From: an uncultured Dehalococcoidia bacterium | GTDB taxonomy: Bacteria; Chloroflexota; Dehalococcoidia; Lucifugimonadales; UBA3495 | Reading direction: 5' to 3' | Length of the DNA stretch: 64,000 bases | Assembly: GCA_951813535.1 (NCBI GenBank) | Contig: OX638345.1 | Coordinates: forward strand, 2,899,477-2,963,476 | Shown: one piece after another, positions 1,323 to 54,496 of the stretch | Numbering within the stretch: position 1 is the first letter of the stretch | How the letters are laid out: each line of letters opens with the position of its first letter | Translations under genes and position numbers: made by a program | Notes under the pieces: model-generated | Told to the model about the DNA's origin: nothing | Database searches by the model: none | What the model saw: only the letters and a program-made list of their open reading frames with translations

Positions 1323-2216
1323 CTAGCGGTTTTCCTCGTCGTCGCCCAGATCCGCGCCCAAACCCTGGAGGAACTCCTCAATACTGGAAGGCAGCGGCGT
1401 GGTTGGCTCGGTTTGCGCGTCGCCGCCGTATTCGCTGTCGTACATCTCTTCGATGCGCGTGAGCGTGTCCCCGGTGGGGATCTGGCCGTCGTTGGGGGTG
1501 AGCTCGTCGTATTGCTTCTGGCCACGCTCGGTCTGCGCAATGTAGTCAGGAAGGTTGTACAGACGACACAGCAGATCCATCATGCGAGCCGCGCCCTGGT
1601 GGTCATCGTCCAGGTTGAGGTATTGGGGCAGGTGCACGACGAAGGCGCGGGTCTCCACGCCGGTCTGAGCCGCGGTTTGGCTCACGGTGTAGGTGATGGT
1701 GGTGGGGCCCTCGTAGCTGCTGGCGCGAGCGTTGGCGATCTGGTAATCGCGTTCCACGTTCTCACCGGTGCCCAAACCGGAAACCACCAGCGGGCGGGTG
1801 TGCGGGACCATGTCGTACATGCCACCGATGAGGGAATACTGCTTCACGCCGAAGTGGTTGATGATCTCCAGCAGGGCGTCAGAGTAGTCCTCGCCATAAA
1901 GGTGAGGCTCCAGGAGATGGGCGGTCAGCAGGTGAGGGCCATCCTCGGGGTTGGCGTAACGGATGATCGTGTTGGGAATGGTAACCTCGCGGCGGCCGTT
2001 GACGAGGTAGGAGCGCGGGCGGTAACGGGTGAAATCGTAGTAGCGGCCCGGGCGATAGAGGCGACCGAGTTCCTGGCTACGCAGATGGCGCTCAACCCTG
2101 CCGAGCGACAGGCTGCCCACGTTTCCCACGTCGATCCACGGTCGGAGCACAGCCAGCATGTGCGGCTCGTGCAACTCCGGCACCGGTTCGGCTATGTCGA
2201 ATTCACCAATACGCAT
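1323..2216 (-). CDS. PAC2 (proteasome assembly chaperone 2-like) family protein
   Basis: 297-aa ORF with GAGGA 7 nt upstream of the ATG. It has an acidic C-terminal tail, and the overall pattern resembles PAC2-family proteins as I remember them. Not searched. Confidence 0.55.
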   Translation of the reverse strand: MRIGEFDIAEPVPELHEPHMLAVLRPWIDVGNVGSLSLGRVERHLRSQELGRLYRPGRYYDFTRYRPRSYLVNGRREVTIPNTIIRYANPEDGPHLLTAHLLEPHLYGEDYSDALLEIINHFGVKQYSLIGGMYDMVPHTRPLVVSGLGTGENVERDYQIANARASSYEGPTTITYTVSQTAAQTGVETRAFVVHLPQYLNLDDDHQGAARMMDLLCRLYNLPDYIAQTERGQKQYDELTPNDGQIPTGDTLTRIEEMYDSEYGGDAQTEPTTPLPSSIEEFLQGLGADLGDDEENR

Positions 2217-2429
2217 AACGTGTCCTCACCGTATCAGTCGGCTACCGCAGCGTCAAGGAAGGTTCGGATAGGGCTTTCGGCGCCCGGAACCGCCCAATTG
2301 TAAATCGGACCGTCACCCGACGCGTGCGTACAACCGGTACACGGGGTCACACCGTCAGTAGGCGATGGGTTCAACACCGGCGGGAAGGACATATGGGCCG
2401 TGGTGGGTTGACCCGAAAATCTACGAAAT

Positions 2430-3608
2430 CTAACACTCCCCCATCTGCACTAGTTGGCCCTCACGCCAGGCGGTGAAGCCACCCTTGACGGTGGCGAAGG
2501 TGTCGAGACGAAGCGCGCCATCGACGTTGTGACCAGCCATGTCGTGCCACACGAAACGGCCTTCGCGCTTGTCCCATATAGCGGCGTCGCCCTCCATGCC
2601 GACAGCCAGGGAGCCAATGCTGTCCTGCAGGCCGAGGATCTCGGCGGGTCGGCTGGTGCTGGCGGCGACGGCGTCGGATAGAGGCATGCCCAACGCGTGG
2701 AACTTGCTGACCAGGTCGTTCATGAGGTAGACGACGCGTCCCGGCGGCGCGATGTGGACATCGGTGCTGATGGTGTCGGGCACGACGCCCTGGTCCATGG
2801 CGGCCTTGACCACCTCCACGTCGCAGTGTATGCCGGCGTGTCCGACGTCCATGACCACCCCACGGTCGGCGGCAGCGCGGACCTCGGGACGGATTTTGCC
2901 AGAATTGTCCAGCATGTTTTCCGGGAAGCCGTTGAAGGCGTGGGTGGAGATGTCGCCGGGGCCGAGGTGTTCGAGCACGTCGGGCAAGGGGATGGGCGTG
3001 CCGCTGACATGTACCATGAGGCGAACGCCCGCCTCGGTGGCCGCTTCGCGGGCCCGCGACATGGCCTCGTGGGCGTTCCACCGGGCCACGGCGTCGAAGT
3101 GCATGCGGACCTTGACGCCGAATACGAAATCAGGGTTGTCCTTGATGGCCTGCACCGTCTGCTCCACGTCAATGATGCGCATGTCGTGGAGACCACCACC
3201 GAGAACCCGATTGGCCGCCAAACCGACAGCCCCGATGTGCAGGAAGGCGAGCAGCCGGGTGCGGTGCGCGGGAAATACGTAGTCGCGCATGGCGCCGTAA
3301 TTGAGGAAACCAGCGCTGCCAGCATCGACGCCGGTGGTCACGCCGCTGCCCAGGCAGGTCTGGTCGGCGTGGACGGCGCTGCCGCTGCCTCCATGATAGA
3401 AATGGCCGTGGAGGTCGATGAGGCCGGGAGTGACCAGTTTGCCGCTGGCGTCGATGGTCTGCGTGGCGGAGGTCGGATCGATGTGATCGGCAACCGCGGC
3501 AACCTTGCCGTCCTTGAAGGCGATGTCGCGGGGTTCGTCGTTGATGCCCTGGGTCGGGTCAAGCAGGTTGCCGCCCGACAGCACCAGGTCATAAGTGGCG
3601 GTGGTCAT
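2430..3608 (-). CDS. amidohydrolase-superfamily metallohydrolase (dihydroorotase/deacetylase-like)
   Basis: Motifs DLHGHF (HxH), VHVSG, DVGHAG and STDVH fit the amidohydrolase TIM-barrel. GGAGGG lies 9 nt upstream of ATG 3608. The ORF-track start at 3626 is a TTG overlapping that RBS. Confidence 0.75.
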   Translation of the reverse strand: MTTATYDLVLSGGNLLDPTQGINDEPRDIAFKDGKVAAVADHIDPTSATQTIDASGKLVTPGLIDLHGHFYHGGSGSAVHADQTCLGSGVTTGVDAGSAGFLNYGAMRDYVFPAHRTRLLAFLHIGAVGLAANRVLGGGLHDMRIIDVEQTVQAIKDNPDFVFGVKVRMHFDAVARWNAHEAMSRAREAATEAGVRLMVHVSGTPIPLPDVLEHLGPGDISTHAFNGFPENMLDNSGKIRPEVRAAADRGVVMDVGHAGIHCDVEVVKAAMDQGVVPDTISTDVHIAPPGRVVYLMNDLVSKFHALGMPLSDAVAASTSRPAEILGLQDSIGSLAVGMEGDAAIWDKREGRFVWHDMAGHNVDGALRLDTFATVKGGFTAWREGQLVQMGEC

Positions 3609-3651
3609 CGGATTGGTTCCCTCCAATCAACGTTCAACGCGAAAGCCCGGC

Positions 3652-3660
3652 GTTCTATCA
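3652..3660 (-). promoter_or_regulatory. extended -10 promoter element TGaTAGAAC for the amidohydrolase gene
   Basis: Minus strand reads TGATAGAAC about 44 nt upstream of ATG 3608. The same TGnTAGAA(C/T) pattern recurs upstream of other genes in the window. Confidence 0.4.
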
Positions 3661-3707
3661 AAGTGCATGGCGCTCGCATTGCACCTCAGAAAATTGGCGA
3701 CCCGGAG

Positions 3708-4181
3708 CTAGTCCTCGTCCCAGTAATAGTCCTCGGCGGCGAGATTTTCCTGCCACCAGCGGCGCAAACGGGGCAGCACCAACTCCTTGGGCTTGCGAAA
3801 ATCGGTCTCAACGAAGTCGAGGGAATCCGAAAGGGGCTTCGCCTCCCACTTTTCGATGGCCTCCATGATGAACCGTCGCACCATTTCCGGGGAACGGGAC
3901 TCCAGCCGGCCCAACTGATAGGCCAGGGTCACGGCCATCTGCATCTGGCAGATCACCGCGTGGGCATCCTCGTCGCGCAGGTTTTCAGGCATGGCGCCGG
4001 ACTGGTCGATGAAGTCGTCCAGAACCTGACCGATGATGAGCGGGGGATCGTTTTCTTCGTGTTCCGGGAGGAACTCCACCAACCGGTCTGCCAAGTCGGC
4101 AACGCCTTCTTCCGGAAGGGCGTAGTCAGCCCAACGGTCATCGCCGGGCTCCGGGTTAGGAGTAAACTGGTCGTCGCTCAT
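3708..4181 (-). CDS. hypothetical acidic protein
   Basis: Open frame with high third-position GC. ATG 4181 has AGGA 8 nt upstream. The ORF-track start at 4223 (GTG) would leave only about 30 nt to divergent ybeY. No motif recognised. Confidence 0.5.
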   Translation of the reverse strand: MSDDQFTPNPEPGDDRWADYALPEEGVADLADRLVEFLPEHEENDPPLIIGQVLDDFIDQSGAMPENLRDEDAHAVICQMQMAVTLAYQLGRLESRSPEMVRRFIMEAIEKWEAKPLSDSLDFVETDFRKPKELVLPRLRRWWQENLAAEDYYWDED

Positions 4182-4253
4182 TGCATCGTCCTGAGCCCCA
4201 AACTGTTCAAACAATTGTATCACGCACCCATTACAAGGATGATTCTCAGCAAT

Positions 4254-4808
4254 ATGACGGTGTTGCTCCCAAATGTTTCCGTGTCAGTACAGACGGACCT
4301 GCCAGAGGGATGGGAACCCATTGACGAACCGGGGTGGCTCGATTCGGTCGTGCGCCGCGGTTTGGCGCAGGCCATACCGGCGAATGCGTCGGGTCAAGTG
4401 AGCCTGCTCCTCACGGACGACGCGACCGTGCGCCACCTCAACCGGGAGTACCGAGGCGTAGACCGTACAACGGACGTGCTGTCGTTTTCGTTCGATCACT
4501 GGGGTCACTGGGAAGGGGATGAGGACGCGCCGGGGTCCGACGAAGAGCTGTTACCGGGGTGGCCGCTACCGGACGACGAGCCGCCGCCGCTGGGGGAGAT
4601 AGTGGTCTCGGTTCCACAGGCGGCTCGACAGGCGGAAACACAGGGGGTGCCGCTGCAGGAGGAGCTGGCGCTGCTCATAGTGCATGGGGCGTTGCACCTG
4701 CTGGGGTACGACCACTATGACGACGAGGAACGGGAGGCGATGCAGGCGCTTGAGCGAGCGGCGTTGTCGGGCCTGTTCCAGAATCCCGAGCCTCCGGTCG
4801 CCGACTAG
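4254..4808 (+). CDS. ybeY: rRNA maturation endoribonuclease YbeY
   Basis: C-terminal part of listed ORF 2697..4808. Carries the HGALHLLGYDH zinc motif and DVLSFSF. Start is ATG 4254, with in-frame alternative ATG 4239. The upstream part of the listed ORF is shadow of minus-strand genes. Confidence 0.85.
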   Translation: MTVLLPNVSVSVQTDLPEGWEPIDEPGWLDSVVRRGLAQAIPANASGQVSLLLTDDATVRHLNREYRGVDRTTDVLSFSFDHWGHWEGDEDAPGSDEELLPGWPLPDDEPPPLGEIVVSVPQAARQAETQGVPLQEELALLIVHGALHLLGYDHYDDEEREAMQALERAALSGLFQNPEPPVAD

Positions 4809-5353
4809 AGGTAGACCATCGCCACCATGATGGCGAAGTAAACCAGCGTCGAGACGACGAGAGCCCAGACGCCGGCCGCCAGATCGTCCAGCATGATTCC
4901 CCACCCGCCATGGAGGTCTTCGAGGCGCCGGCATGGCCAGGGCTTGAGGGTGTCGAAAGCGCGGAAGGCGAAAAAGCACAGCGCCACCCACCACAGCGGC
5001 CACCAGGGCGCAAAGAGGGCGGAAGACAGATGCCAGGAGGCCCAGGCGGTGGGAATCAACGTAATCCACATGCCAACAAACTCGTCCCAGACCGCAGTGC
5101 CGGGGTCGGGGTTGGCGTCAGTGGACATGCGTCCGGTGGCCCAAACACCGACGACCGTTCCGCCCAGGATCAGGACCGCGAGGACCAGCAAGCGCAGCAG
5201 AGTCGCAAAAGGACCGTCGGCGGGGAGCAGAAACATCAGGGCGCAGTAGATAATCGCCGCGGCACCCGCGCCGGCGGTACCCGGCGCCAGGGGGGAGAGC
5301 CCGCTGCCGAATCCGCTGCCGATGAGCCAGGCCAGGCGATCCGCCCAGGACAT
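4805..5353 (-). CDS. pgpA: phosphatidylglycerophosphatase A
   Basis: PgpA motifs FGSGLSPLAPGTAG, DEFVGMW, FRAFDTLKPWP and GGWGIMLDDLAAG. ATG 5353 avoids overlap with the upstream gene (stop at 5364). The 3' end overlaps the ybeY stop by 4 nt (convergent). Confidence 0.8.
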   Translation of the reverse strand: MSWADRLAWLIGSGFGSGLSPLAPGTAGAGAAAIIYCALMFLLPADGPFATLLRLLVLAVLILGGTVVGVWATGRMSTDANPDPGTAVWDEFVGMWITLIPTAWASWHLSSALFAPWWPLWWVALCFFAFRAFDTLKPWPCRRLEDLHGGWGIMLDDLAAGVWALVVSTLVYFAIMVAMVYL

Positions 5354-17329: not shown

Positions 17330-18511
17330 TCAGTCGCGGGCCAGGATGACGGTGCCGCCGCTGTGGCGGGAACCCAGCGCCCCACCGGTGCCGTGGGCCA
17401 GGGCGAGTTGGCAGTTGGGAACCTGGCGTCCGGTGCCGTCGAACTGATGGCGGAGCTGGCGAGTGGCTTCGAGGAGCAGGAAGAGGCCGCGCATCCCCGG
17501 ATGGTTGGAGGACAGGCCGCCACCGTCGGTGTTGATTGGAAGCCCGCCGCCGACCTTGAGGCGGCCGCCGCTGACGAATTCCCCACCCTCACCCTTCTTG
17601 CAGAAACCCAGGTCCTCGAGAGTCTCTACCACGGTGATGGTAAATGAGTCGTAGACCATGGCCATGTCGATGTCGTCGTGGGTCACGCCGGCCATCTCGA
17701 AGGCGCGGGGAGAACTCTGGTGCGCGGCGATGTAGATCAGGTCGCGCTTGCCCGCGCCCTGGTGGGCGATGGCCTCGCCGGTACCGAGGACCCAGACCGG
17801 GGTGTGGCGGCAGTTGCGTGCGACTTCGGGAGAGGCCACCACGACGGCGCCACCACCATCGGTGATAATGCAGCAGTCCATCAGGTGGAGCGGGTCGGAG
17901 ATGACGCGGGAACCGACCACGTCCTCCACGGTGATGGGGTCTCGGAAGAGCGCCTCGGGGTTCATCGAGGCGTGGTGGCGCATGGCCACGGAGACCTCCG
18001 CCAGTTGCTCGGCCGTGGTGCCGTAGAGGTGCATGTGCCGGCGGGCGATCATCGCGTAGAGGCCGACGGTGGTCATGCCATAGAGTTCCTCGAAGCTGTC
18101 GGGGGACGGCTCCAGGATGGGATGCCCGAAGCGGCCGACGCCGCCGGTTCCCACGGACACGCCGCCGGAGCGGGCGAGGCTGCTGTAGGTGATCACCGCC
18201 ACGTTGATGCGGCCGGCCGCGATGGCGGTGAGGGCGTGGGAGAGGTGGAACTCGAAGGACCCGCCGCCGACGGTGGTGTTGTCGACGTAGCTGGGGTACA
18301 TGTTGAGGTAGTCGGCCAGGTTCATCCCACTGTTGCGGGCGCTGCTGGAGGCGGTGAAGAGGCCGTCCACGTCGTCCTTGGTGAGGCCGGCGTCGGCAAG
18401 AGCCTTGATGACGCTCTCGCCCTGTATCTGGAGTTCGCTCTTGTCGGGAGCGTAGCGGGTGACGTGCTCGTGGATGCCCACGATGGCGGCGGCGCGCCTG
18501 AGGTCAACCAT
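17330..18511 (-). CDS. thiolase-like (SCP-x type) protein
   Basis: 393 aa thiolase fold pattern, C-terminal GGLSSNHPGMRG...AHGTGG. Confidence 0.85.
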   Translation of the reverse strand: MVDLRRAAAIVGIHEHVTRYAPDKSELQIQGESVIKALADAGLTKDDVDGLFTASSSARNSGMNLADYLNMYPSYVDNTTVGGGSFEFHLSHALTAIAAGRINVAVITYSSLARSGGVSVGTGGVGRFGHPILEPSPDSFEELYGMTTVGLYAMIARRHMHLYGTTAEQLAEVSVAMRHHASMNPEALFRDPITVEDVVGSRVISDPLHLMDCCIITDGGGAVVVASPEVARNCRHTPVWVLGTGEAIAHQGAGKRDLIYIAAHQSSPRAFEMAGVTHDDIDMAMVYDSFTITVVETLEDLGFCKKGEGGEFVSGGRLKVGGGLPINTDGGGLSSNHPGMRGLFLLLEATRQLRHQFDGTGRQVPNCQLALAHGTGGALGSRHSGGTVILARD

Positions 18512-18602: not shown

Positions 18603-19034
18603 TCACTCAGATTGCTCATGGGTGGGAGCCGGGGTGACGGGACCGGTTTCGATTTCCGTTTCATTAACCACGCGGCGAAGAACGTCGTTGATGCGAGCCC
18701 TCCAATCCCCGCCCTTGCGGCGGAAGTGCGTAACGACATCCTGGTCAAGGCTGAGCTCTACGTTCACACGGTTCTGGCCGTTGGTTCGGGCCGCGAGGTA
18801 TGCATTGACCAGGTCAGGGTCGACTTCGATCGCCGGACGCGCCTGGGCGAATTCTGCTTCGATAGGCACCCAACAGTCAGGGTCGGTTGCGATGATAACG
18901 TGGATGGCGACTTGCTCGCCGTAAATGGCCGTGACTTCGGAGAATGTCTTGCCGGCGATTTCATCATAGGGGGGCAATGCGGCGAATTCTTCGGGAGTAA
19001 GGCCGCTGGGTTCATAGCCTTCAGCCATATTCAT
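18603..19034 (-). CDS. brnA: BrnA-type antitoxin (DUF4415) with extended N-terminus
   Basis: C-terminal VNVELSLDQDVVTHFRRKGGDWRARINDVLRRVV matches the DUF4415/BrnA signature (..RLD.DV..WF...G.GYQTRIN..LR). Overlaps brnT by 14 nt. Confidence 0.7.
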   Translation of the reverse strand: MNMAEGYEPSGLTPEEFAALPPYDEIAGKTFSEVTAIYGEQVAIHVIIATDPDCWVPIEAEFAQARPAIEVDPDLVNAYLAARTNGQNRVNVELSLDQDVVTHFRRKGGDWRARINDVLRRVVNETEIETGPVTPAPTHEQSE

Positions 19035-19293
19035 TCACCTCTATTTGGCTGGCGGGACGGAAGCTGATTATGCGCCTGATTTCACCCATTGCACCGCGCC
19101 GAGTGTACACGACAACATACAACCGGGCGTCGAAATAACCGTAAGCCACCCAGCGGGACTCTTCATATCGGTTGCTCGGAACGATGATGGCCGTATCCCG
19201 CTCAAACAGAGATCCTGCATCAGCAAAATCCAGTTCGCGTCCGTCCAGGGTTTCACGGCGTTTATCTTCGTCCCACTCGTATCGGATATTCAT
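19021..19293 (-). CDS. brnT: BrnT-type ribonuclease toxin (DUF497)
   Basis: 90 aa. N-terminal YEWDEDKRRETL and C-terminal IRRIISFRPASQIE match the DUF497 pattern (FEWD..K...N..KHG ... IRIISAR.A...E). Confidence 0.8.
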   Translation of the reverse strand: MNIRYEWDEDKRRETLDGRELDFADAGSLFERDTAIIVPSNRYEESRWVAYGYFDARLYVVVYTRRGAMGEIRRIISFRPASQIEVNEYG

Positions 19294-19371: not shown

Positions 19372-20586
19372 TCAGCCAGGCACTTCGTCGTAATGGTGGA
19401 AGGTGCCGATGACGTTGGCCTCGTACATGGCCTGGACTTCGTCCTCAGTATAGTCAAGGATGCCGGTCAGCACGTCTTCGTTGTGCTCGCCCACCTGGGG
19501 AGTGGTTCCGACGACGGCGGGGGTGCGGCTGAAGTGCCAGAAGTCGCCGGAGACGGCGATGGTGCCGGCCAGGAAGTCGTCGACCTCGACCATGGCGCGC
19601 CGCTCCCACGGATGCGGATCGGCGGCGGCCTGGGCGATGGTGTTGACCGGAGCCGCGACCACGTCGTGGTGGGTGAAGTGCGCGATGGCTTCGTGCATGG
19701 TCATGTCGGCCATCAGATCGCGCATGGCCTGGTTGACCAGTTCGCCGTTCGCTCCGCGCTCGTGGCGGGTGGTGAACCGAGGGTCTTCCAGCCACTCGGG
19801 CTTGCCCAGGGCGTTGCAGACGCGGTGCCAGTGGTGCTGGTCGCCGGCGGAAATGAGCACCCAGCCGTCCTTGCACGGATACGTGCCGGACGGGGGCGCC
19901 GCCGACTCGCCGCGCCTGGGCTCGATGCCGGCGCCGTGGTAGGCGGTGATGGGGATTTCGGTATAGCTGTAGCCGGTGTCGGCGAGGCAGGCGTCGATGG
20001 TCTGACCAACGCCGGAACTCTCGCGCTCGTGCAGAGCGGCGAGGGTGCCGATGGCGGCATGGAGCGCCGTGGTACGGTCAATGATGGGCACGCCGGCGCG
20101 GATGGGTGGCATCCCCTCTTCTCCGGTGACCATCGCGATACCGGACATGGTCTGACCGATAGGGTCGTATCCGATCTGCTCGCGGTAGGGCCCGAACTGC
20201 CCGTAGGCCGAGACGTTGACCATGATGATGCGCGGGTTCAGCTCGTAGAGCACGTCGTAGCCGAAGCCCATAGTATCAATGGTGCCGGGCCGGAAGTTTT
20301 GAAGCAGCACGTCAGAGACCTGGACCAGCTTGCGGAGGACTTCCTTGCCACCTTCTTTGCGGAGATCGATGCTGAGGCTCTTCTTGCCACTGTTGTACTG
20401 GACCCAGTAGGCGGACTGCTTGCGGACCCAGGGAGCGTGGTAGCGAGTTTCCTCGCCACCGAGGCGCTCAACCTTGATGACTTCGGCGCCCAAACGGGCC
20501 AGTACCTGGGCGCAGCGGGGGCCGGCCTGGTGCCGACCGAGGTCAATGACGCGTATCCCGTCCAGAGGGCCTTTAGCTTCTGGCAT
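19372..20586 (-). CDS. CaiB/BaiF family (class III) CoA-transferase
   Basis: N-terminal PLDGIRVIDLGRHQAGPRCAQVLARLGAEVIKVE signature. 404 aa. Confidence 0.85.
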   Translation of the reverse strand: MPEAKGPLDGIRVIDLGRHQAGPRCAQVLARLGAEVIKVERLGGEETRYHAPWVRKQSAYWVQYNSGKKSLSIDLRKEGGKEVLRKLVQVSDVLLQNFRPGTIDTMGFGYDVLYELNPRIIMVNVSAYGQFGPYREQIGYDPIGQTMSGIAMVTGEEGMPPIRAGVPIIDRTTALHAAIGTLAALHERESSGVGQTIDACLADTGYSYTEIPITAYHGAGIEPRRGESAAPPSGTYPCKDGWVLISAGDQHHWHRVCNALGKPEWLEDPRFTTRHERGANGELVNQAMRDLMADMTMHEAIAHFTHHDVVAAPVNTIAQAAADPHPWERRAMVEVDDFLAGTIAVSGDFWHFSRTPAVVGTTPQVGEHNEDVLTGILDYTEDEVQAMYEANVIGTFHHYDEVPG

Positions 20587-20687: not shown

Positions 20688-21917
20688 CAGGGCAATCGCA
20701 TTTCACAGGGATAGGACTTTGAGCAGGTAATCGAAGTCCCATCCGGCTTTTTTGCGTTTGGCCTTGATGCCGACTTTGGCGGTGCGTTCCTGCTTGAGCA
20801 GGTTCAGTGCCAAGTGCCTGATCACTGCCAGGTTCTGGTCAGCGTGGCCGGTCCTCACTCGGCTGTGGTCCTCGTCGAAGGCCACGTCCAGCACCCAGTG
20901 CAGGCTGTTCTCGATGCTCCAGTGGCTTCTGGCCGATGCCAGCAGCGTGGCCGCGTCCGCCGGATAGCTGCAGATGTAGTAGCGGGTATCGGTTGGGGCA
21001 TCGGTGGTAGCGTCCCGTCGGTAGCTGACCCGGGCCACCGCGCCCAGGCTGGCCCATTGGCGCTGGGGGTCCACGTAGGTCAGTTCCTCTGGGTCGGTGA
21101 TCGCCCAGCACTCCCGCCGTTCCAGCCGGCCGTGGTCTTTGCCCACCTGTTGGTGGTGGCTGTAAGCCACACCATCCCATCCTACACGCTCACAGCAGGC
21201 GAACAGGTCCTTGATGTTCTGGTGCAACTCTCCCTGGTTGGCCTTCACCGCCAGCAGGTAGTCAGCGCCCCCCTGCACCACCTGCTGGGCGATGTTCCTC
21301 TGGCAGCCCATGGCGTCTATCGTCACCAGGCAACCCTTCAGTTCCAACACCTTGAGCAGTTCCGGTATCGCCGTGATCTCGTTGGAATGGGCCTCGGTGC
21401 GGGTCTGTCCCAACACCATCCGGTTCTCGGTGGCCCACGCGCTGACCATATGCAGCGCACCTCGGCCGTTGGCCCGGTCATGGCAACCCCGCAGGGTCTT
21501 GCCATCTATCGCCACCACCTCACCCTGGGCCAGTTCACTCACCGAGCGTACCCAGTCCATGAAACAGGCCGAAAACTGCTCCGGGTCCAGCAGACCAAAC
21601 ACCCGACCAAAGGTGTCGTGGGAGGGTATGCCGTTTGGCAACTGCAAGAAGCGGCGGAACCAATCCTCCTTGGCTTTACCGAACTCCTCAATCTCCACCC
21701 AGTTGTCGGCGCAACAGATCACCGCGCAAAGAGTGATGACGATGATGTCCAGCAACTCATGCCTTTTGGCATGTCCGGTTCTCGGGTCTTCCAGCATTCC
21801 AAACCGTTCGGCAATCGAAAGCGGTACATTGTCCATCTCCACCACGCACCTCAGACAATCAGATCGTGGCAACACTTTAGCCCGATTTTTAGAATAATCT
21901 GAAATGCGATTGCCCTG
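20688..21917 (-). mobile_element. ISAs1-family insertion sequence, apparently intact (1230 bp)
   Basis: Perfect 18-bp terminal inverted repeats: CAGGGCAATCGCATTTCA (20688..20705) and its reverse complement (21900..21917). Contains a single transposase ORF and is flanked by a 10-bp direct repeat. Confidence 0.85.
20703..21836 (-). CDS. ISAs1 family transposase (H-repeat-associated type)
   Basis: N-terminus MDNVPLSIAERFGMLEDPRTGHAKRHELLDIIVITLCAVICCADNWVEIEEFG is the DDE_Tnp_1-associated signature, followed by AIDGKTLRG...ITIDAMGCQ...HWSIENSLHWVLDVAFDED. The listed ORF extends to 21875, but ATG 21836 fits family N-termini better. Confidence 0.85.
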   Translation of the reverse strand: MDNVPLSIAERFGMLEDPRTGHAKRHELLDIIVITLCAVICCADNWVEIEEFGKAKEDWFRRFLQLPNGIPSHDTFGRVFGLLDPEQFSACFMDWVRSVSELAQGEVVAIDGKTLRGCHDRANGRGALHMVSAWATENRMVLGQTRTEAHSNEITAIPELLKVLELKGCLVTIDAMGCQRNIAQQVVQGGADYLLAVKANQGELHQNIKDLFACCERVGWDGVAYSHHQQVGKDHGRLERRECWAITDPEELTYVDPQRQWASLGAVARVSYRRDATTDAPTDTRYYICSYPADAATLLASARSHWSIENSLHWVLDVAFDEDHSRVRTGHADQNLAVIRHLALNLLKQERTAKVGIKAKRKKAGWDFDYLLKVLSL

Positions 21918-21927
21918 GTGGCTAACG
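21918..21927. repeat. target-site duplication (right copy) GTGGCTAACG
   Basis: See the left copy. Confidence 0.85.
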
Positions 21928-22063
21928 GTACTGATGGTTGGACTACCATCGGGGAGCGCCAGGGCGGGTGAGCACGAGGATTCGTGGAGGACAGAACGAT
22001 CCCGAGTGAACCCACAGGCGCGTCGGGGAGGCTGGATCGTGCATGTAACAAAATTGAAACGTT

Positions 22064-22136
22064 TTCACAATTTGTTCACTAATATCGGGCCTGTTTTCAC
22101 TTGCTTTTCACAGTTGGTTGCTACGCTGTGTTCACA
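22064..22136 (+). promoter_or_regulatory. array A of five phased TTCAC(A/T) direct repeats
   Basis: TTCAC starts at 22064, 22075, 22096, 22107 and 22131, all in the same orientation, with spacings of 11, 21, 11 and 24 nt. It sits about 95 nt upstream of a small ORF with an AAGGAG RBS. Confidence 0.6.
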
Positions 22137-22229
22137 GATGCGAACGAGGCCAAGCTGGGTTGGCAACACCGAAACGGGAAGCCTCCCCGACCGTCCGCAG
22201 AAAAATCCACACAAGGAGACGACCGCATC

Positions 22230-22349
22230 ATGGGCGCAGCGAAAATCAAAATCGGCAGACTCACCTGGAAGGAATTCGGAATGGTCGCAGTGGCCGGCGC
22301 CTTGCCCGTTGCCGTCCTGGGGCCGGCGCTGATGATCATTGCGCAGTGA
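22230..22349 (+). CDS. 39-aa single-TM peptide (hypothetical)
   Basis: ATG 22230 has AAGGAG 11 nt upstream. Product is MGAAKIKIGRLTWKEFGMVAVAGALPVAVLGPALMIIAQ, a basic N-terminus plus one hydrophobic helix. In frame with the tail of listed ORF 22101..22349. Confidence 0.45.
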   Translation: MGAAKIKIGRLTWKEFGMVAVAGALPVAVLGPALMIIAQ

Positions 22350-23149
22350 CAACAACGACGCGGCGCGACACCAGGAGGGACATCGTCAAATAGCGGTGGA
22401 AGAGGTCCAGATCGGATCAGAAACCATGTCAAACCGGTGGCTCTGCAGGCGCCATAATTCGCCAGGAACAGGGTCTACCATACACCAGCGACGGGCGTGA
22501 ATAAGCGCAGCAGCATCAACACAAGCCAAGTGCTCCGAAACACATAGCGACGGGGCGGGGATAATCAAACAATTCGCATAGGCGCGCCGCAACTGGGGCC
22601 AGTGGGTGATAATGCTCGCTGGCCTCTTCTTCTGTCTTGGAAACCCGAGTATCTCTGCCAAGCCATGGCGAGCCTGGCGTCGTGGAGGTAAGGGCGTACG
22701 CTTTCGAGAACAAGACCGAAATCAGTGCCAGTCAACCCGTACGTCGGCAATGCAACGGGCCGGAGGATACGACGACCTCCGGCCTACCTGCCGGTCGGAT
22801 CCTCCAAGATGAAAAATACGCTGTGCATCCGGCCGCGACCTCCGTGCGAATATCCGCGGCCCGAGGCCGAGAGGTGCGGCGCTCCCCTTCATCCCCGCCG
22901 CGCTGACCAAGTCTGCTCTCCCGTCGGGATTGCCGAGTTTCGCTTGCAATGACAGTTCGAATTCAATGGGTACGGATATGCGTACTTTCGGCGGCAGAGC
23001 CCGGCAGCGTCGCGGACCGCAATGGAGCGGGGCCCAACTATGGGGTCGGAATGTGCGAGTCCAACGTGTCGAACGTTCGTCTTTTTTGCCAGCCAAGACG
23101 CGTGGGCTGACACCATTCTCCAGAGAAACAAGCGCAGTAAATGGGGCAG

Positions 23150-23219
23150 TTCACGTCCCGCAATCGGCCTTTCACGTTATGTTCATACATTTACGCCTGA
23201 TTTTCACTCAGTTTTCACA
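23150..23219 (+). promoter_or_regulatory. array B of five phased TTCAC/TTCAT direct repeats (paralog of array A)
   Basis: Motif starts at 23150, 23171, 23182 (TTCAT), 23203 and 23214, with spacings of 21, 11, 21 and 11 nt. It aligns without indels to array A from the first pair through TTTTCACARTTGRTTGMTAC. Confidence 0.6.
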
Positions 23220-23561
23220 ATTGATTGATACCATCAATATGTGGACGGGGACGAGGCAAGGGTTCAGTCAGGCGGGTGAGTGCGGTATCGCCGAGCCTCG
23301 TCCATTTTCCCAAACGCGGGACTAGCTACCTTCGCGACGATCCTCACCAGCAATTACTGAACGTCAACCCGAGCCGACAGAGGCACGCACACACGGCAAT
23401 GGCCATCCGAGCAGCAGCGCCGCAGCATGATCTCGCCACCACTCGAACGGGCGAAAACTCTTGCAGAACCAGGCAATATCAACAAACGTGAAATACACGA
23501 TTCATACAAGTGTCATTGGGAACGCCACCAGCCTGGCATCATAATTCATCGAGGAGGAACC

Positions 23562-49913: not shown

Positions 49914-51353
49914 CTAGATCGGCGCTCGTCGGGTGTGCCACTCGGTGGCCTCCTGGTAGGCGTATGCGGCTCTCAGGATGGTTGCCTCCGCGAATGGCCC
50001 AGCGCCAAGCTGAACGCCGATCGGGAGCCCATCTTCCGTGAAGCCTCCCGGGATAGACACGGCGGGCATGCCGGCCAACGGGTAGCAGCCGGTGTACGAC
50101 CGCCGGAAGAAGAACCGTTGGCGCACATCGTCGGCCGACTCGAACGGCGCCGTCAGGGCATCGTGTCGCGGAGCCGGATATGGCGCGGTCGGGGACACCA
50201 GCAAGTCGACCTGGCGGAAGGCGTCCTCGAACTGGCGACGGAGCAGGACACGAGCCTTCATGGCCCGGTTCTGCACCTTGGCCGGAACCAGGGAAGCGCT
50301 CTGAAGGCGGGTGCGGGAAGCCCGGTCCAATAGCTCGGGGGACCGCCGCATCAGACCGTCGCGGGCGCCGGCTCCTTCGGTATCGGCAATGCCCACGAAG
50401 ATCGCACCCGCGATTTCCGTCAACGGAAGAGACACGTTGACCACCTCGGCGCCCAGGCCGGCGAGCGTCTCGAGGACCGCTTCGGTAGCGCGCCGCACGT
50501 CCGGGTGCATGTCGGGCGCGTCGCACAACTCCGTCATGCGGCCAACCTTCATGCCGCGGATGTCGCCGTCGAGCATGCCGCGATAGTCGGGAACCAGGCG
50601 CCGGCTGGTGGTAGGATCCATGGGGTCGTAGCCAGCCACGGCGCCCAAAACCAGAGCGCAGTCCTCAACGGTCTTGGTCATGGGTGATGCTGCATCCATG
50701 AACCAGCACATGGGTGTGATCCCGTGCCGGCTGATGCGCGTGAAGGTCGGCCGCAGGCCCACCGCGTTGCAGTACGAAGCCGGCCCGCGTCCACTCCCGC
50801 CCGTGTCCTCGCCTACGGACGCGGCACAGAGATTGGCCGCCAGGGCCGCGCCCGACCCGCTGCTCGACTCGCCGGGAGTGTGTCCGCTGCGCCAGGGATT
50901 GTCAGGAGTGCCGTACGGCGGATCCGCGGTTCCGCCCATGGCCAGTTCACTGAGGTTGAGCTTGCCCAGCAGGATCGCTCCGGCGGACTTGAGACGGGTC
51001 ACCACCGTTGCATCCTCGGCCGGCACGTTGTCCGCATAGGCGCGGGAGCCGTTGCTGGTGAGGATGCCCTCGGTGTTGAACTGGTCCTTGATGGCCATGG
51101 GGACGCCGAACAGAGCGCCACGGACGGCCGTTTCGTCTCCGCGACGCAACGCCTCGTCCACGTCCGCGGCGGCGCCCAGGGCCTCCTCGCGGCACACGGT
51201 GATGTAGGCCTTGATGGCGCCGTCCATGGCGTCGATGCGGCGGAGATAAGCGTTCACCGCGTCGGTGGCGGTGAAATCCCCGTTGCGGATGGCCGCTGAA
51301 GTGGCTTCAGCGGAGAGGAAGACGATGTCGTCGTGGGCTCGGGTAGAGGTCAT
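49914..51353 (-). CDS. amidase-signature enzyme (GatA/AtzE-like)
   Basis: MAIKDQF (Lys), a GESSSGSGAA Ser-rich signature and GGSGRGPAS. 479 aa. Confidence 0.85.
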   Translation of the reverse strand: MTSTRAHDDIVFLSAEATSAAIRNGDFTATDAVNAYLRRIDAMDGAIKAYITVCREEALGAAADVDEALRRGDETAVRGALFGVPMAIKDQFNTEGILTSNGSRAYADNVPAEDATVVTRLKSAGAILLGKLNLSELAMGGTADPPYGTPDNPWRSGHTPGESSSGSGAALAANLCAASVGEDTGGSGRGPASYCNAVGLRPTFTRISRHGITPMCWFMDAASPMTKTVEDCALVLGAVAGYDPMDPTTSRRLVPDYRGMLDGDIRGMKVGRMTELCDAPDMHPDVRRATEAVLETLAGLGAEVVNVSLPLTEIAGAIFVGIADTEGAGARDGLMRRSPELLDRASRTRLQSASLVPAKVQNRAMKARVLLRRQFEDAFRQVDLLVSPTAPYPAPRHDALTAPFESADDVRQRFFFRRSYTGCYPLAGMPAVSIPGGFTEDGLPIGVQLGAGPFAEATILRAAYAYQEATEWHTRRAPI

Positions 51354-51670
51354 TGTGAAGCTCCGGCGGTTTGGCCTGCCTGAATGACGGCATACTGTTT
51401 GGCGATGATCGCCTGGAACGCGGGGGAAACCTCGTGCCAGTCCAGGACGTCGACACGGAATGGCAGGGTGGATTCCTGAAACGCCTCAATCAATCGTCCG
51501 GCTTTTTGGAAACCCAAAGGCTCCGGCCCCATCACTGCCAGATCCAAATCGGACCACGGCTTGGTCATCCCAGTTACGCGCGAGCCGAAAGCGTACACTT
51601 CGCATCCAGGGACGTATTGTTCCAGTATGCTCTTGATTTCGGCCAATTGATCCGGTCTCACGTCAATCAT
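51350..51670 (-). CDS. MNT-type minimal nucleotidyltransferase (antitoxin of HEPN/MNT pair)
   Basis: ATG 51670 gives MIDVRPDQLAEIK...YAFGSRVTG...SDLDLAV (GS...DxD pol-beta motif). The stop TGA overlaps the amidase ATG (ATGA). Confidence 0.8.
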   Translation of the reverse strand: MIDVRPDQLAEIKSILEQYVPGCEVYAFGSRVTGMTKPWSDLDLAVMGPEPLGFQKAGRLIEAFQESTLPFRVDVLDWHEVSPAFQAIIAKQYAVIQAGQTAGASQ

Positions 51671-52106
51671 TGCGGGCCTCCAGAGCGTGCAATAAACATC
51701 GTGCGTCCTGCAGAAAAGCCGGTATTGCTGCAAAGACTGCGTCGGCCGTGGTTTTTCTGTAGGTGTGTGACGTATCATTTCGCGCCAAGTGGTGATCCAT
51801 CCAGCGATCAACATCGTCTATGAGGCGATTCTCTGCGCCCAGCCGGAACAGCTCGCGCCTGGTGACACCGTCGGCCGAGTTAGGGTTGACGTTGAGCTCC
51901 AACCAGCGCTTGATCGATAGCCATGAAAGCTCGTAGGTGAACTCGAAGTGTTTGATCACGCCGGATTGAAGCACTCGGCGGAAGGCTTCTTCCAAGTCGC
52001 CCGTCGTCAGGTGCTCGCCCTCCCGATCATCCAGTGCCTGATAAACGGCGAGGGCCTGCTCAAGGCTTCCGATGGCATTTTGCAGGTTTTCCAGGTCAAG
52101 AGGCAT
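51663..52106 (-). CDS. HEPN-domain protein, HI0074 nucleotidyltransferase-substrate-binding family (toxin)
   Basis: 147 aa with the RNDTSHTY R-x4-H HEPN motif. 8-nt overlap with the MNT gene. Confidence 0.8.
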   Translation of the reverse strand: MPLDLENLQNAIGSLEQALAVYQALDDREGEHLTTGDLEEAFRRVLQSGVIKHFEFTYELSWLSIKRWLELNVNPNSADGVTRRELFRLGAENRLIDDVDRWMDHHLARNDTSHTYRKTTADAVFAAIPAFLQDARCLLHALEARND

Positions 52107-52141
52107 GGAGGCTCACAGAGGACACTTCCCCCTCCTCGGGT

Positions 52142-52336
52142 TCAGCCTTCGCCGGCGTCCGGAAAGATGGTGACGGGTTCAAGGCCCTCCAGATCCAGGT
52201 CGCGCAAACGATCAAGTTCCTGCATCAGGCTGGCGAAGCGATTGGCCACTTCGGGCAAATCGGAATCGTCGATAAATATTCCCACCAGGTCCGCCATTTT
52301 ACGTACCTGTTCAACACTGAGATCAGGGTCAGGCAT
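52142..52336 (-). CDS. GatC/AtzG-like small amidase accessory subunit
   Basis: 64 aa. LSVEQVRKMADLVGIFIDDSDLPEVANRFASLMQELDRLRDLDLEGLEPV parallels the GatC pattern (..EEV..IA.LARL.L..EE.......L..IL.....L...D..GVEP). Confidence 0.6.
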   Translation of the reverse strand: MPDPDLSVEQVRKMADLVGIFIDDSDLPEVANRFASLMQELDRLRDLDLEGLEPVTIFPDAGEG

Positions 52337-52426: not shown

Positions 52427-54496
52427 TCACAGCCAACGGCGGAACCAATCCAGCATGCGTTGCAGGTATTCCTGCCGCAACGCAACGTGTCCGGTTCGGA
52501 GAAAACCGTGCCCGCAGCCGGGGAAGCGGACCATTTCGACCTCTTTGTCCAGCCGCTTCAGGACCTGGAAATACTGTTCGCTCTGCCCGATCGGACACCG
52601 CGCGTCGGATTCGCCGTGCAGCAGGAGGACCGGCGTTTCGACCTGCGGAGCGAACTTGATGGGGGAACGCTGGAGCAAGCGGTATGCGAGGGTATCCACG
52701 CCCTCGGCCAATTCGCTGGCCAGGTTCCGGCTGATGGGCATACCGCCAGCCAGGCGGATGGCCCACTGCGTCTCGCCGAAGCTGGTGGCGATGTCGGAAG
52801 TGCCGTACATGGTCCACAGGTCGATGCACGGAGCGCCGGCCACGGCCGCACGGAACCGGCCGGTTTGGCCGATCATCCAGGTGGTCATGTATCCGCCGTA
52901 GCTGTACCCGTGAACGCCTAGCCGGTCGGTGTCCACGTAGTCACGCTGGCATACCGCGTCGACGGCCGCCATCAGGTCACGAAAGTCGTCGCCGCCCCAA
53001 TCCCCCAGCACCGCGTTGACGAACTCTTCGCCGTAGGTAGAAGAGCCGCGAGGGTTCACCGCGAGGGTGAGGTAACCGGCGCCGGCCAGCACCTGATGCC
53101 ACGGCACGAAGGAATCGTAAAATGCCCCATTGGGGCCTCCGTGAATTTCGAGCACCAGCGGGTAGCGTTGTGTTGGGTCAAAGTCGGGCGGATGGTACAG
53201 GCGGCACTCGATATCCCAGTCCTCCCGCTCCAAAAGAAACTTCTCCATGGGCGCAGGCGTGTGCTTGGCCAGCCAACCGTCATTGTGAGCCGTGAGGCGC
53301 CGTCGGCTCGGTTGGCCCGGCTCGGAGTCACGCTCGATCAGGTAGGCATCCGACGGACTTGCCGGGTCCGAACCGGTCACCACCAGACGCCGTGCCCGGC
53401 AGTCCATGGCGACGCCGGAGAGCAGTTCACCTCCGACGGTGACAGCGAACGGAACGTCGCCTTCATCCGGCCCAACAGCCGTTTCGTAGAGCTTAGTTTC
53501 GCCCTCGGAGTCGCCCAGGAAGAGGATCCGACCGTCACACCCATCCTCCGCCAACCATCGGAGTTCAAGGGGAGGGAAGATGCCCGGGTACCCAAGACAG
53601 GGACGCAGGCTGTCGTCGGTCAATTGCCGGGGAGGACCGCCCGGCTCCAGCACGTAAAGATATGCCTGCCACAGCACCATCAGGCCGTCGCCGGTTCCAC
53701 CGGCGGCCAGCAGGCGGTCGCCATCGGGCGCCCAGGAGACGGCAGCCACGTCCGCCAGACCGTGCGAACGTAGCTCGGGCTCGGGGGGGTCGCCCTCTGG
53801 CGTGACGCCATCGGGAACCGACACGACGTAGACTTCGTTGGTGGCGGTAACGTCCCGGTCGCCGGAACGACCAGATATGAAGGCGATGCGACTACCGTCC
53901 GGCGACCATGCGGGAGCCATGTCATCCCAATCGCCAGAGGTGAGTTGAACGCATCCGCCGGTTTCTGCATCAACCAGGAACAGGTGAAAATGGCTGTCAC
54001 CCCGCCAGCCGATGGCGTCGTGCCGGTAACGGATGCGGCGCACCTCCCGGGCGACGGGCAGGTCCGGCTCCTTGGGGGGTTCCGTTGGCGACACGTCCGA
54101 CACCAGGGCCAACCGATCAGAATCCGGTGACCACGCGAACTCTCTGACACCACCGGTCAGGTGTGTCAGTTGTGCAGCTTCGCCTCCGCCGGCGGGCATC
54201 AACCAGACCTGGCGCGTGGAGTCGGCATCGTCAGCGCCGGGACGCAGGAAAGCCAGGACTGCGCCGTCGGGCGAGAAGCGGGGATGCCCATCGTTGCTTC
54301 CCTGCGTGAACGGCCGAGGCGTTCCGTCACCGGCTGCGGCGTCCAGACCCACCTGGTAAATGCGCGCCCGAGGCTCCAGGCTTTCCTGATCGATCCAGGA
54401 GAGCACATACGCGCACCTGCTCCCATCGGATGAGACCGTGGGGTCGCCAACTGATTTCAGGTGCCGGAAGAGGTCTGGGCCTATGGGTTCATACAT
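52427..54496 (-). CDS. S9 family serine peptidase (beta-propeller + alpha/beta hydrolase)
   Basis: TolB-like propeller repeats (SPDG.. motifs), then the GYSYGGYM nucleophile elbow and a C-terminal D/H region. Confidence 0.85.
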   Translation of the reverse strand: MYEPIGPDLFRHLKSVGDPTVSSDGSRCAYVLSWIDQESLEPRARIYQVGLDAAAGDGTPRPFTQGSNDGHPRFSPDGAVLAFLRPGADDADSTRQVWLMPAGGGEAAQLTHLTGGVREFAWSPDSDRLALVSDVSPTEPPKEPDLPVAREVRRIRYRHDAIGWRGDSHFHLFLVDAETGGCVQLTSGDWDDMAPAWSPDGSRIAFISGRSGDRDVTATNEVYVVSVPDGVTPEGDPPEPELRSHGLADVAAVSWAPDGDRLLAAGGTGDGLMVLWQAYLYVLEPGGPPRQLTDDSLRPCLGYPGIFPPLELRWLAEDGCDGRILFLGDSEGETKLYETAVGPDEGDVPFAVTVGGELLSGVAMDCRARRLVVTGSDPASPSDAYLIERDSEPGQPSRRRLTAHNDGWLAKHTPAPMEKFLLEREDWDIECRLYHPPDFDPTQRYPLVLEIHGGPNGAFYDSFVPWHQVLAGAGYLTLAVNPRGSSTYGEEFVNAVLGDWGGDDFRDLMAAVDAVCQRDYVDTDRLGVHGYSYGGYMTTWMIGQTGRFRAAVAGAPCIDLWTMYGTSDIATSFGETQWAIRLAGGMPISRNLASELAEGVDTLAYRLLQRSPIKFAPQVETPVLLLHGESDARCPIGQSEQYFQVLKRLDKEVEMVRFPGCGHGFLRTGHVALRQEYLQRMLDWFRRWL

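Follow-up and report, generated by a model that had tools for sequence, protein, structure and literature searches.

The DNA analysed in this work is a stretch of 64,000 nucleotides (nt) from an uncultured Dehalococcoidia bacterium of the marine Chloroflexota (SAR202; assembly GCA_951813535.1, contig OX638345.1, positions 2,899,477 to 2,963,476), and this whole stretch is referred to as the window. On its minus strand, a two-gene toxin-antitoxin (TA) cassette that encodes a HEPN protein and an MNT protein lies between the gene of a small GatC/AtzG-like subunit and the gene of an amidase-signature enzyme. We consider it likely that this cassette is a selfish element, probably transcribed with its host genes, that resides in an AtzGE-like operon without a demonstrable role in the function of the amidase. 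Orthologous loci with and without the TA pair were compared, and the adjacency of the small gene and the amidase gene turned out to be ancestral and the cassette to be an insert. All four open reading frames (ORFs) were found on the minus strand in the order and at the coordinates given in a preliminary description of this DNA. They are listed below with the upstream gene, the boundaries of the cassette, and the sequence motifs. Protein lengths are in amino acids (aa).

52427..54496, minus strand: S9 prolyl-oligopeptidase-family peptidase gene with beta-propeller, 689 aa (PF00326 E=2e-47, PF07676)
52142..52336, minus strand: GatC/AtzG-like small subunit gene, 64 aa (profile, Pfam, and Foldseek matches to GatC)
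52107..52141, minus strand: 35-nt spacer from the stop of the small gene to the start of HEPN, left boundary of the cassette (from the sequence)
51663..52106, minus strand: predicted HEPN toxin gene of the HI0074 / NTase_sub_bind type, 147 aa (PF08780, TIGR01987)
51782..51759, minus strand: RNDTSHTY (RX4HXY) motif, HEPN residues 109-116 (read in the sequence)
51350..51670, minus strand: predicted MNT antitoxin gene, 106 aa (PF01909 E=1.6e-10)
51586..51542, minus strand: GSRVTGMTKPWSDLD (GSX10DXD) motif, MNT residues 29-43 (read in the sequence)
51361..51364, minus strand: GGAG Shine-Dalgarno sequence of the amidase within the 3' end of MNT, right boundary of the cassette (conserved motif, checked in the window)
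49914..51353, minus strand: amidase-signature enzyme gene, 479 aa, GatA/AtzE-like paralogue (PF01425 E=4e-107)

Position and anatomy of the insertion

The loci of relatives were identified by a scan with the amidase in which one genome was kept per species. The scan gave 80 loci, nearly all of them from metagenome-assembled genomes (MAGs) of SAR202/Dehalococcoidia, with many complete long-read chromosomes among them. The compared set consists of 72 species-level loci, namely 20 out-group loci with amidases 65-69% identical to that of the window and 52 in-group loci with amidases 84-94% identical to it. The L-numbers used below are labels of loci of relatives.

No HEPN, MNT, or Hic gene was found at the locus in any of the 20 out-group species. 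The small gene is located between -11 and +110 nt from the amidase start in 18 of these 20 species, often overlapping it, and the overlap is 4 nt in L032, L035, and L082. The basal lineages of the in-group are also empty. Their alleles exhibit a 13-nt spacer between the stop of the small gene and the start of the amidase (TGAacGGAGCTTCCCgTTG / acGGAGCTTCCCg). The genomes that bear a TA pair form a derived clade on the neighbour-joining tree of the amidase, which is unbootstrapped and indicative only. As the two genes adjoin each other in most distant orthologues and in the basal close relatives, their pairing is ancestral and the TA pair has been inserted. These observations are consistent with the preliminary description, where it was proposed that a small GatC-like gene normally adjoins its amidase and that a TA cassette has been captured inside a two-subunit enzyme operon; the empty out-group and basal in-group alleles support the latter. 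The locus was also said not to look like a clean recent insertion, and this agrees with a cassette that is common to many species and with synonymous divergence that is near saturation. The out-group locus L078 contains an insert of another kind at this junction, 1.5 kb long (3433-4970), where a 345-aa ORF rich in Ala, Pro, and Thr has no Pfam match.

The cassette occupies the interval from the small-gene stop to the Shine-Dalgarno sequence that precedes the amidase. This GGAG(C/T)T sequence, located about 8-13 nt before the amidase start, is kept in most alleles whether they are empty, filled, or decayed. The MNT frame passes through it and ends, across the alleles, at ATGA, TAATG, or TGATG. 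The stop of the window MNT is the TGA of ATGA and overlaps the amidase start. HEPN and MNT overlap each other by 8 nt (ATGATTGA). Both overlaps had been described and both can be seen in the sequence. The description of all four genes as translationally chained stands for HEPN, MNT, and the amidase and falls for the small gene, because the 35-nt spacer parts it from HEPN.

The origin of the two ends of the MNT gene can be traced by comparison with a free-standing HEPN/MNT pair. This pair (L093) is located in an unrelated context after rpsT, and it has the HEPN-then-MNT order and the 8-nt overlap as in the window. Therefore, both the order and the overlap arrived with the cassette. The homology between the MNT of L093 and the window MNT ends at residue 101 of the 106 residues of the latter, and from that point the L093 protein runs on for another 23 residues. 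Since the homology stops there, the last MNT codons consist of sequence from the spacer and the Shine-Dalgarno region of the host.

A scan of the minus strand across the cluster for promoter and terminator consensus sequences found none, although such scans are weak evidence for Chloroflexota. Only 35 nt are available upstream of HEPN and no promoter-like or terminator-like sites were seen, so the simplest inference is that the cassette is probably transcribed with the host genes. The S9 peptidase gene has the same direction as the small gene and ends 90 nt upstream of it. Its position is the same in all close relatives, and the transcription unit may start with it. An HTH_73 (PF24718) gene that is absent from the window is located between the S9 peptidase gene and the small gene in L092 (3041-3247), L095 (3035-3292), and L044 (2185-2409).

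The TA pair had been described as visibly less rich in guanine and cytosine (GC) than its neighbours. The dip is real, with a cassette GC content of 0.563, the 18th lowest value among 1265 segments of 765 nt, and with GC contents at third codon positions (GC3) of 0.655 for HEPN and 0.636 for MNT compared to 0.819 for the amidase. However, the contrast does not hold for the small-subunit gene, which has a GC3 of 0.600 that is as low as that of the cassette genes, while its neighbours have 0.75-0.82. Low GC alone is no mark of foreign DNA here because the ancestral 64-aa gene is equally low, and GC was rejected as a marker of foreign origin for that reason. The low GC3 of the small gene could possibly be due to a short, highly charged protein or to recombination tracts that reach from the cassette into the gene.

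Identities of the four proteins

HEPN matched PF08780 NTase_sub_bind (E=7e-33) and the HI0074 family TIGR01987 with 68.4 bits, above the cut-off of 55.8. MNT matched PF01909 (E=1.6e-10). Class I HEPN/MNT pairs have been defined by the RX4HXY and GSX10DXD motifs in neighbouring genes of PF01934 or PF08780 and of PF01909, and it has been reported that MntA poly-AMPylates the tyrosine of the motif, by which the RNase is blocked (Yao, 2020; PMC7641770). The window pair corresponds to this definition, with a PF08780 HEPN that carries RX4HXY and a neighbouring PF01909 MNT that carries GSX10DXD. The RX4HXY motif is kept in nearly all HEPNs at the junction. As the motifs of the window match the class I definition, we infer a type VII mechanism where HEPN would be an RX4H RNase toxin and MNT would AMPylate Tyr116.

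The window pair shares its motifs and its overlapping neighbouring genes with type VII HepT/MntA, which includes the PF08780/PF01909 pairs typified by HI0074/HI0073. It differs from them in the order of its genes, as the pairs tested in PMC7641770 have MNT upstream whereas the toxin comes first in the window. In addition, the window pair has no room for a promoter of its own at 35 nt after the preceding gene, and the host spacer with the Shine-Dalgarno sequence supplies the C-terminus of its MNT. PADLOC gave no match for HEPN, and for MNT it gave only weak PDC-S09 matches and a 'Specificity_I' match that is likely a model artefact. No paralogues of HEPN, MNT, or Hic genes were found elsewhere in the 64-kb window.

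The 64-aa ORF represents a genuine gene that has been conserved: 265 homologues with lengths of about 63-65 aa were found in MAGs of Chloroflexota/Dehalococcoidia, several of which are from sponges. The window protein alone exhibits weak matches only (TIGR00135 gatC, E=0.0086; AtzG-like, E=0.14). A profile was built from 29 orthologues drawn from the related loci, and its top three matches in the PDB are GatC chains (3h0l_C, 3e-4; 2df4_C, 1.9e-3; 4wj3_C, 3.5e-3) with which it aligns along GatC residues 1-53. The same 29 orthologues scanned one by one against Pfam matched GatC PF02686 in 18, AtzG-like PF13318 in 16, and GatF PF20977 in 14 cases, all below the gathering scores. The AlphaFold (AF2) model of the small protein has a pLDDT of 74 and consists of helices at residues 8-18 and 24-46 followed by an extended tail. 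Foldseek with this model gave GatC or GatF for all of ranks 1-9 (probability 1.00-0.44, TMq 0.53-0.62) and a TMq of 0.58 against AtzG (6c62_C); the short length of the protein keeps the E-values weak (>=0.05). On the PDB profile matches, the Pfam matches of the orthologues, and Foldseek, we identify the 64-aa protein as GatC/AtzG-like and truncated, which agrees with the identity given to it in the preliminary description. It shares with the GatC of GatCAB the residues 1-53, which comprise the two N-terminal helices and the first part of the loop by which GatA is wrapped. It differs from GatC, which has 92-100 aa, by the lack of the C-terminal half, and it does not reach the gatC equivalog cut-off.

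The amidase matched PF01425 with 359.5 bits, above gathering, where residues 31-460 cover the whole profile of 445 positions. Its best relatives in the PDB are GatA (4wj3_A, 1e-78) and AtzE (6c62_A, 1.5e-55). Neither family claims it: its 298.8 bits against gatA TIGR00132, from a match mainly to the N-terminal two-thirds, do not reach the cut-off of 481.1, and its 278.1 and 274.7 bits against AtzE NF006631 and TIGR02715 do not reach the cut-offs of 461 and 425.75. On these scores, the small protein and the amidase are best described as a GatCA-derived, AtzGE-like two-subunit amidase that is neither GatA nor AtzE proper.

The best relatives of the large protein in the PDB and NCBIfam are GatA, and some homologues of the small protein are named 'GatC' by the Joint Genome Institute (JGI). 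These two points could suggest the housekeeping GatC/GatA of the tRNA-dependent amidotransferase, in which case the TA cassette would have invaded an essential operon. This explanation is extremely improbable. Genuine GatA proteins of Chloroflexota score 638-649 bits against TIGR00132, where the window amidase scores 299, and they are just 37-38% identical to it. In addition, the small protein lacks the C-terminal part of GatC and no gatB gene is adjacent. The housekeeping identity was rejected on the family cut-offs and on the comparison with the true GatA proteins, which make up a separate family in these related bacteria even though GatA is the best structural relative of the window amidase.

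Among the closest known systems are AtzG-AtzE of Pseudomonas sp. ADP and similar clusters, where a small subunit that derives from GatC, is non-catalytic, and has about 65 aa is likewise encoded directly upstream of a GatA-derived amidase. AtzGE is the 1-carboxybiuret hydrolase of this strain, and AtzG is the non-catalytic obligate partner of AtzE, which is insoluble without it (PMC6219798). The window amidase resembles the AtzE structure 6c62_A, but it is below both AtzE family cut-offs. The atzGE clusters also differ from the window, where no atzH-like gene was found beside the amidase among the neighbours checked. AtzGE is proteobacterial while the window pair is from Chloroflexota, and a TA cassette that splits the two genes, as in the window, is not reported for atzGE. 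One locus binned as 'uncultured Gammaproteobacteria' (L084, CAVZBC010000024.1) has a small-gene/amidase pair with an 11-nt overlap that is 66% identical to the SAR202 pair, which is due to either mis-binning or horizontal transfer.

States and decay of the cassette

The states of the junction between the small gene and the amidase were counted among the 52 in-group species and are listed below.

Intact HEPN and MNT: 18/52 species, 3 of them with HicB/HicA upstream
Intact MNT with HEPN truncated or interrupted: 5/52 species
MNT with no HEPN at the junction: 4/52 species (L019, L024, L057, L044)
MNT reduced to its 3' 23-38 codons: 3/52 species (L014, L015, L021)
Hic genes or their remnants only: 3/52 species
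Nothing recognisable at the junction: 19/52 species

Intact HEPN without MNT was found in none of the 52 in-group species while the reverse was seen in nine, and HicA without HicB was found in no in-group genome of these species. The loci L024, L015, and L014/L021 make up a series of increasing deletion in which the end of MNT proximal to the Shine-Dalgarno sequence is always retained. The loss of the toxin before the antitoxin is what would be predicted for an active TA pair. The 55-nt spacers of L013, L025, and L076 were compared with the cassette as possible scars of a TA deletion. Their match to it is confined to the final 13-14 nt, and these are the Shine-Dalgarno region, which is ancestral in any case.

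Median ratios of nonsynonymous to synonymous substitution (dN/dS) were obtained from the 19 loci that carry all four genes. They are 0.12 for the small gene, 0.13 for HEPN, 0.14 for MNT, and 0.06 for the amidase, and these values indicate that HEPN and MNT are under purifying selection. Divergence is much greater in the cassette proteins than in their flanks, with median identities of 66% for HEPN and 70% for MNT compared to 89% for the amidase, and HEPNs that are just 57-58% identical to the window HEPN are still located at the same junction. In some pairs of loci the pattern is reversed, as judged by synonymous divergence (dS). The window and L055 have a dS of 0.29 in the cassette and 0.81 in the amidase, and the window and L016 have a dS of 0.41 in MNT and 3.5 in HEPN, where a dS beyond about 2 is saturated and can be read only qualitatively. 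Such mosaics point to the replacement of cassette alleles by recombination, with breakpoints inside the cassette.

The following course of events is proposed for the insert as a selfish cassette. The ancestral unit would have consisted of two adjacent and often translationally coupled genes, one for the truncated 64-aa subunit of the GatC/AtzG type and the other for the GatA/AtzE-like amidase. A cassette with HEPN followed by MNT would have integrated into the spacer between the small-gene stop and the Shine-Dalgarno sequence in the ancestor of one sponge-associated SAR202 subclade. The translation of MNT would be coupled to that of HEPN via the 8-nt overlap. The translation of the amidase, which originally followed that of the small subunit, would now follow that of MNT because the MNT frame continues across the Shine-Dalgarno sequence and closes with the TGA of ATGA. 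HEPN would act as an RNase toxin and would be neutralised when the GSX10DXD site of MNT AMPylates the Tyr of RX4HXY. The cassette would persist as a selfish addiction element that is under purifying selection and is exchanged between lineages by recombination. Its loss would proceed in the safe order only, with the toxin lost first and the antitoxin after it, and would end with 3' remnants of MNT that bear the ribosome-binding site of the amidase.

It had also been suggested that HEPN/MNT activity is coupled to the expression of the amidase. This suggestion is not supported by the relatives, most of which have a cassette that is absent, decayed, or replaced beside an intact amidase. One form of such a coupling is a cassette that is kept for stabilising the amidase locus against deletion, as an addiction of this chromosomal segment, or a HEPN RNase that tunes the mRNA of the operon and with it the expression of the amidase. 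Several observations would fit it: the position is kept in at least 27 species, in all of which MNT adjoins the amidase start, both cassette genes evolve under purifying selection, and a second TA family is found at the same junction. TA systems that act as 'guardians' of neighbouring genes, such as CreTA and the plasmid 'toxic guardians', are also known from the literature. We nevertheless regard this form of coupling as unlikely. In the 20 out-group species and in about 25 in-group species that have no functional toxin, the amidase and the small gene remain intact and strongly constrained by purifying selection, the cassette has been repeatedly lost, and no co-variation was found between the state of the cassette and the sequence of the amidase. 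The BrnT/BrnA pair located between unrelated metabolic genes of the same 64-kb window suggests general TA colonisation and not a function specific to this locus.

A separate explanation is a domesticated MNT that either serves the amidase as a leader ORF for translational coupling or acts as a nucleotidyltransferase on the amidase or the small subunit. The nine species with an intact MNT and no functional HEPN would agree with domestication, as would an MNT stop that always overlaps or abuts the amidase start at ATGA, TAATG, or TGATG. However, any TA pair would be expected to decay in such a way that the antitoxin outlives the toxin. L014, L015, and L021 keep only untranslated 3' fragments of MNT, and many lineages are without any MNT, all with an intact amidase. 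Domestication of MNT is therefore considered highly unlikely, more so than the guarding or tuning of the operon.

Several points weigh against the selfish, host-transcribed cassette that is preferred here, in addition to the weakness of the promoter scans. The window MNT scores 48.1 bits against NF047752 MntA, below the 60-bit equivalog cut-off. The toxin-first pattern is confounded by geometry, because the 3' end of MNT carries the ribosome-binding site of the amidase and this alone would bias which deletions survive; the decay events are also not all independent. One insertion followed by losses cannot be cleanly separated from the spread of filled alleles by recombination, since the amidase tree is unbootstrapped and synonymous divergence is close to saturated. 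A cassette that about 35% of the species have retained with conserved catalytic motifs also fits a role that benefits the host, such as defence or stabilisation of the locus.

Other insertions at the junction and known parallels

A second TA family was identified at the same junction between the small gene and the amidase in sister lineages. Both HicB and HicA are located there in L083 (4352-4951), L037 (2929-3486), and L051/L056 (3565-4122), and HicB alone is located there in L042 (4637-4996), L044 (4203-4520), and L057 (4333-4671). In some relatives the HicAB genes are upstream of HEPN/MNT. Seven proteins from relatives matched HicB_lk_antitox PF15919 (E=6e-9 to 1e-6). HicA_toxin PF07927 was matched in L083 (E=1e-6, 29.2 bits) and in L051 (E=3e-5, 24.4 bits, just below the gathering score of 27 bits). 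The spacer of L038 contains a hicA remnant of 159 nt that is 84% identical to the hicA region of L051.

Rearranged alleles were also observed. L037 has three tandem copies of MNT (4048-4326, 4366-4644, and 4684-5001, within 3493-5001) and a partial duplicate of the small gene just upstream of HEPN (3493-3648), and the same fragment is found in L051 and L056. The duplicates of L037 suggest unequal or illegitimate recombination between filled alleles. L044 is heavily rearranged (2185-4994): a duplicated segment made up of an HTH_73 gene, a fragment of the small gene, and HEPN is located upstream of a HicB-HTH gene. Next comes an in-frame fusion of HTH_73 with the small gene, and after it HicB, a hicA remnant, MNT, and the amidase. 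In L030, the 146 nt that part the small gene from the amidase (4855-5000) hold a long imperfect palindrome (CGCTCATCTTGAGCTTGTCGAA...TTCGACAAGCTCACCATGAGCG), which could be an element similar to miniature inverted-repeat transposable elements (MITE) or repetitive extragenic palindromes (REP), or a hairpin.

Two unrelated TA families, the tandem MNTs of L037, the small-gene duplicates of L037, L051, and L056, and the insert of L030 at one junction raise the question of site-specific capture. In this explanation, the spacer between the small gene and the amidase is an integron-like recombination site that repeatedly takes up promoter-less cassettes. A short AAACCG(CC) repeat found at both ends of the cassette at the same relative positions in six loci would point in the same direction. 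However, most filled loci are without this repeat, and flanking repeats beat shuffled sequences only in two deletion derivatives, L015 (p=0.005) and L014 (p=0.03). No integrase or recombinase gene was found near the locus, homologous recombination via the conserved flanking genes accounts for the spread, and coincident insertions across about 50 species are plausible in genomes that appear rich in TA pairs. Capture at a dedicated site is thus judged very unlikely.

A broader reading, to which we give little credence though somewhat more than to site-specific capture, is that the very short spacer is a preferred landing pad where promoter-less cassettes of unrelated TA families (HEPN/MNT and HicAB) are time and again captured, stacked, and swapped through recombination, and where the resident cassette polices or tunes the operon. 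If this landing-pad reading is true, the cassette would, for example, guard the amidase genes against deletion. Alternatively, the translation of the amidase would depend on that of the antitoxin, such that cells that silence the operon would release the toxin.

General colonisation of these genomes by TA genes may explain the coincidence at the junction without a dedicated capture site, because a BrnT/BrnA pair is found elsewhere in the window and because enrichment of sponge symbionts in defence and TA genes has been reported (Slaby, 2017; PMC5649159). The BrnT toxin gene (19293..19021, PF04365 E=3e-20) and the BrnA antitoxin gene (19034..18603, PF14384 E=6e-11) are on the minus strand with a 14-nt overlap. 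They are wedged, in a low-GC stretch, between the co-directional genes of a family III coenzyme A (CoA)-transferase (20586..19372) and a thiolase-like protein (18511..17330).

Chromosomal TA modules in or appended to host operons are known, as with relA-mazEF in E. coli. The window pair resembles such operon-embedded modules (relA-mazEF, CreTA, and HicAB at CRISPR-Cas loci) in that it has the orientation of its host genes, is probably transcribed together with them, and is polymorphic across relatives. It differs from them as it comes between the genes for the two subunits of a single enzyme, at a junction of translational coupling, and as this junction holds HicAB as a second TA family in sister lineages. 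The association of CreTA and HicAB with CRISPR-Cas loci and 'toxic guardian' TA systems on plasmids are known from the literature. The components found in this work are of known kinds, namely a class I HEPN/MNT pair and an AtzGE-like derivative of GatCA. Their context is unusual and evolutionarily informative, and it is not mechanistically surprising.

The loci compared here provide an unusually complete natural series of TA evolution within an operon across about 50 species-level genomes, many of them complete long-read chromosomes. The series contains empty ancestral, filled, stacked with a second TA family, toxin-deleted, antitoxin-remnant, and possibly clean states. It illustrates that a cassette can take over a junction of translational coupling without destroying the downstream gene, with an antitoxin frame that reads through the Shine-Dalgarno sequence to ATGA. 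The lack of toxin-only states among the in-group species may serve as comparative evidence that the toxins of PF08780-type HEPN/MNT and of HicAB are active in uncultivated sponge-associated SAR202. GatC/AtzG-like subunits with GatA-like amidases, which have been described mainly for the proteobacterial AtzGE, occur in Chloroflexota too. For annotation, the locus would serve as a warning that selfish inserts may break the adjacency of genes whose functional partnership is kept.

Elsewhere in the window, the lowest-GC stretch (about 21350-23200, GC 0.54-0.57), in which the ORFs have no Pfam match, is located next to the gene of an insertion sequence (IS) transposase with DDE_Tnp_1 and DDE_Tnp_1_assoc domains (21875..20703, minus strand), noted within the region 20703-23300.

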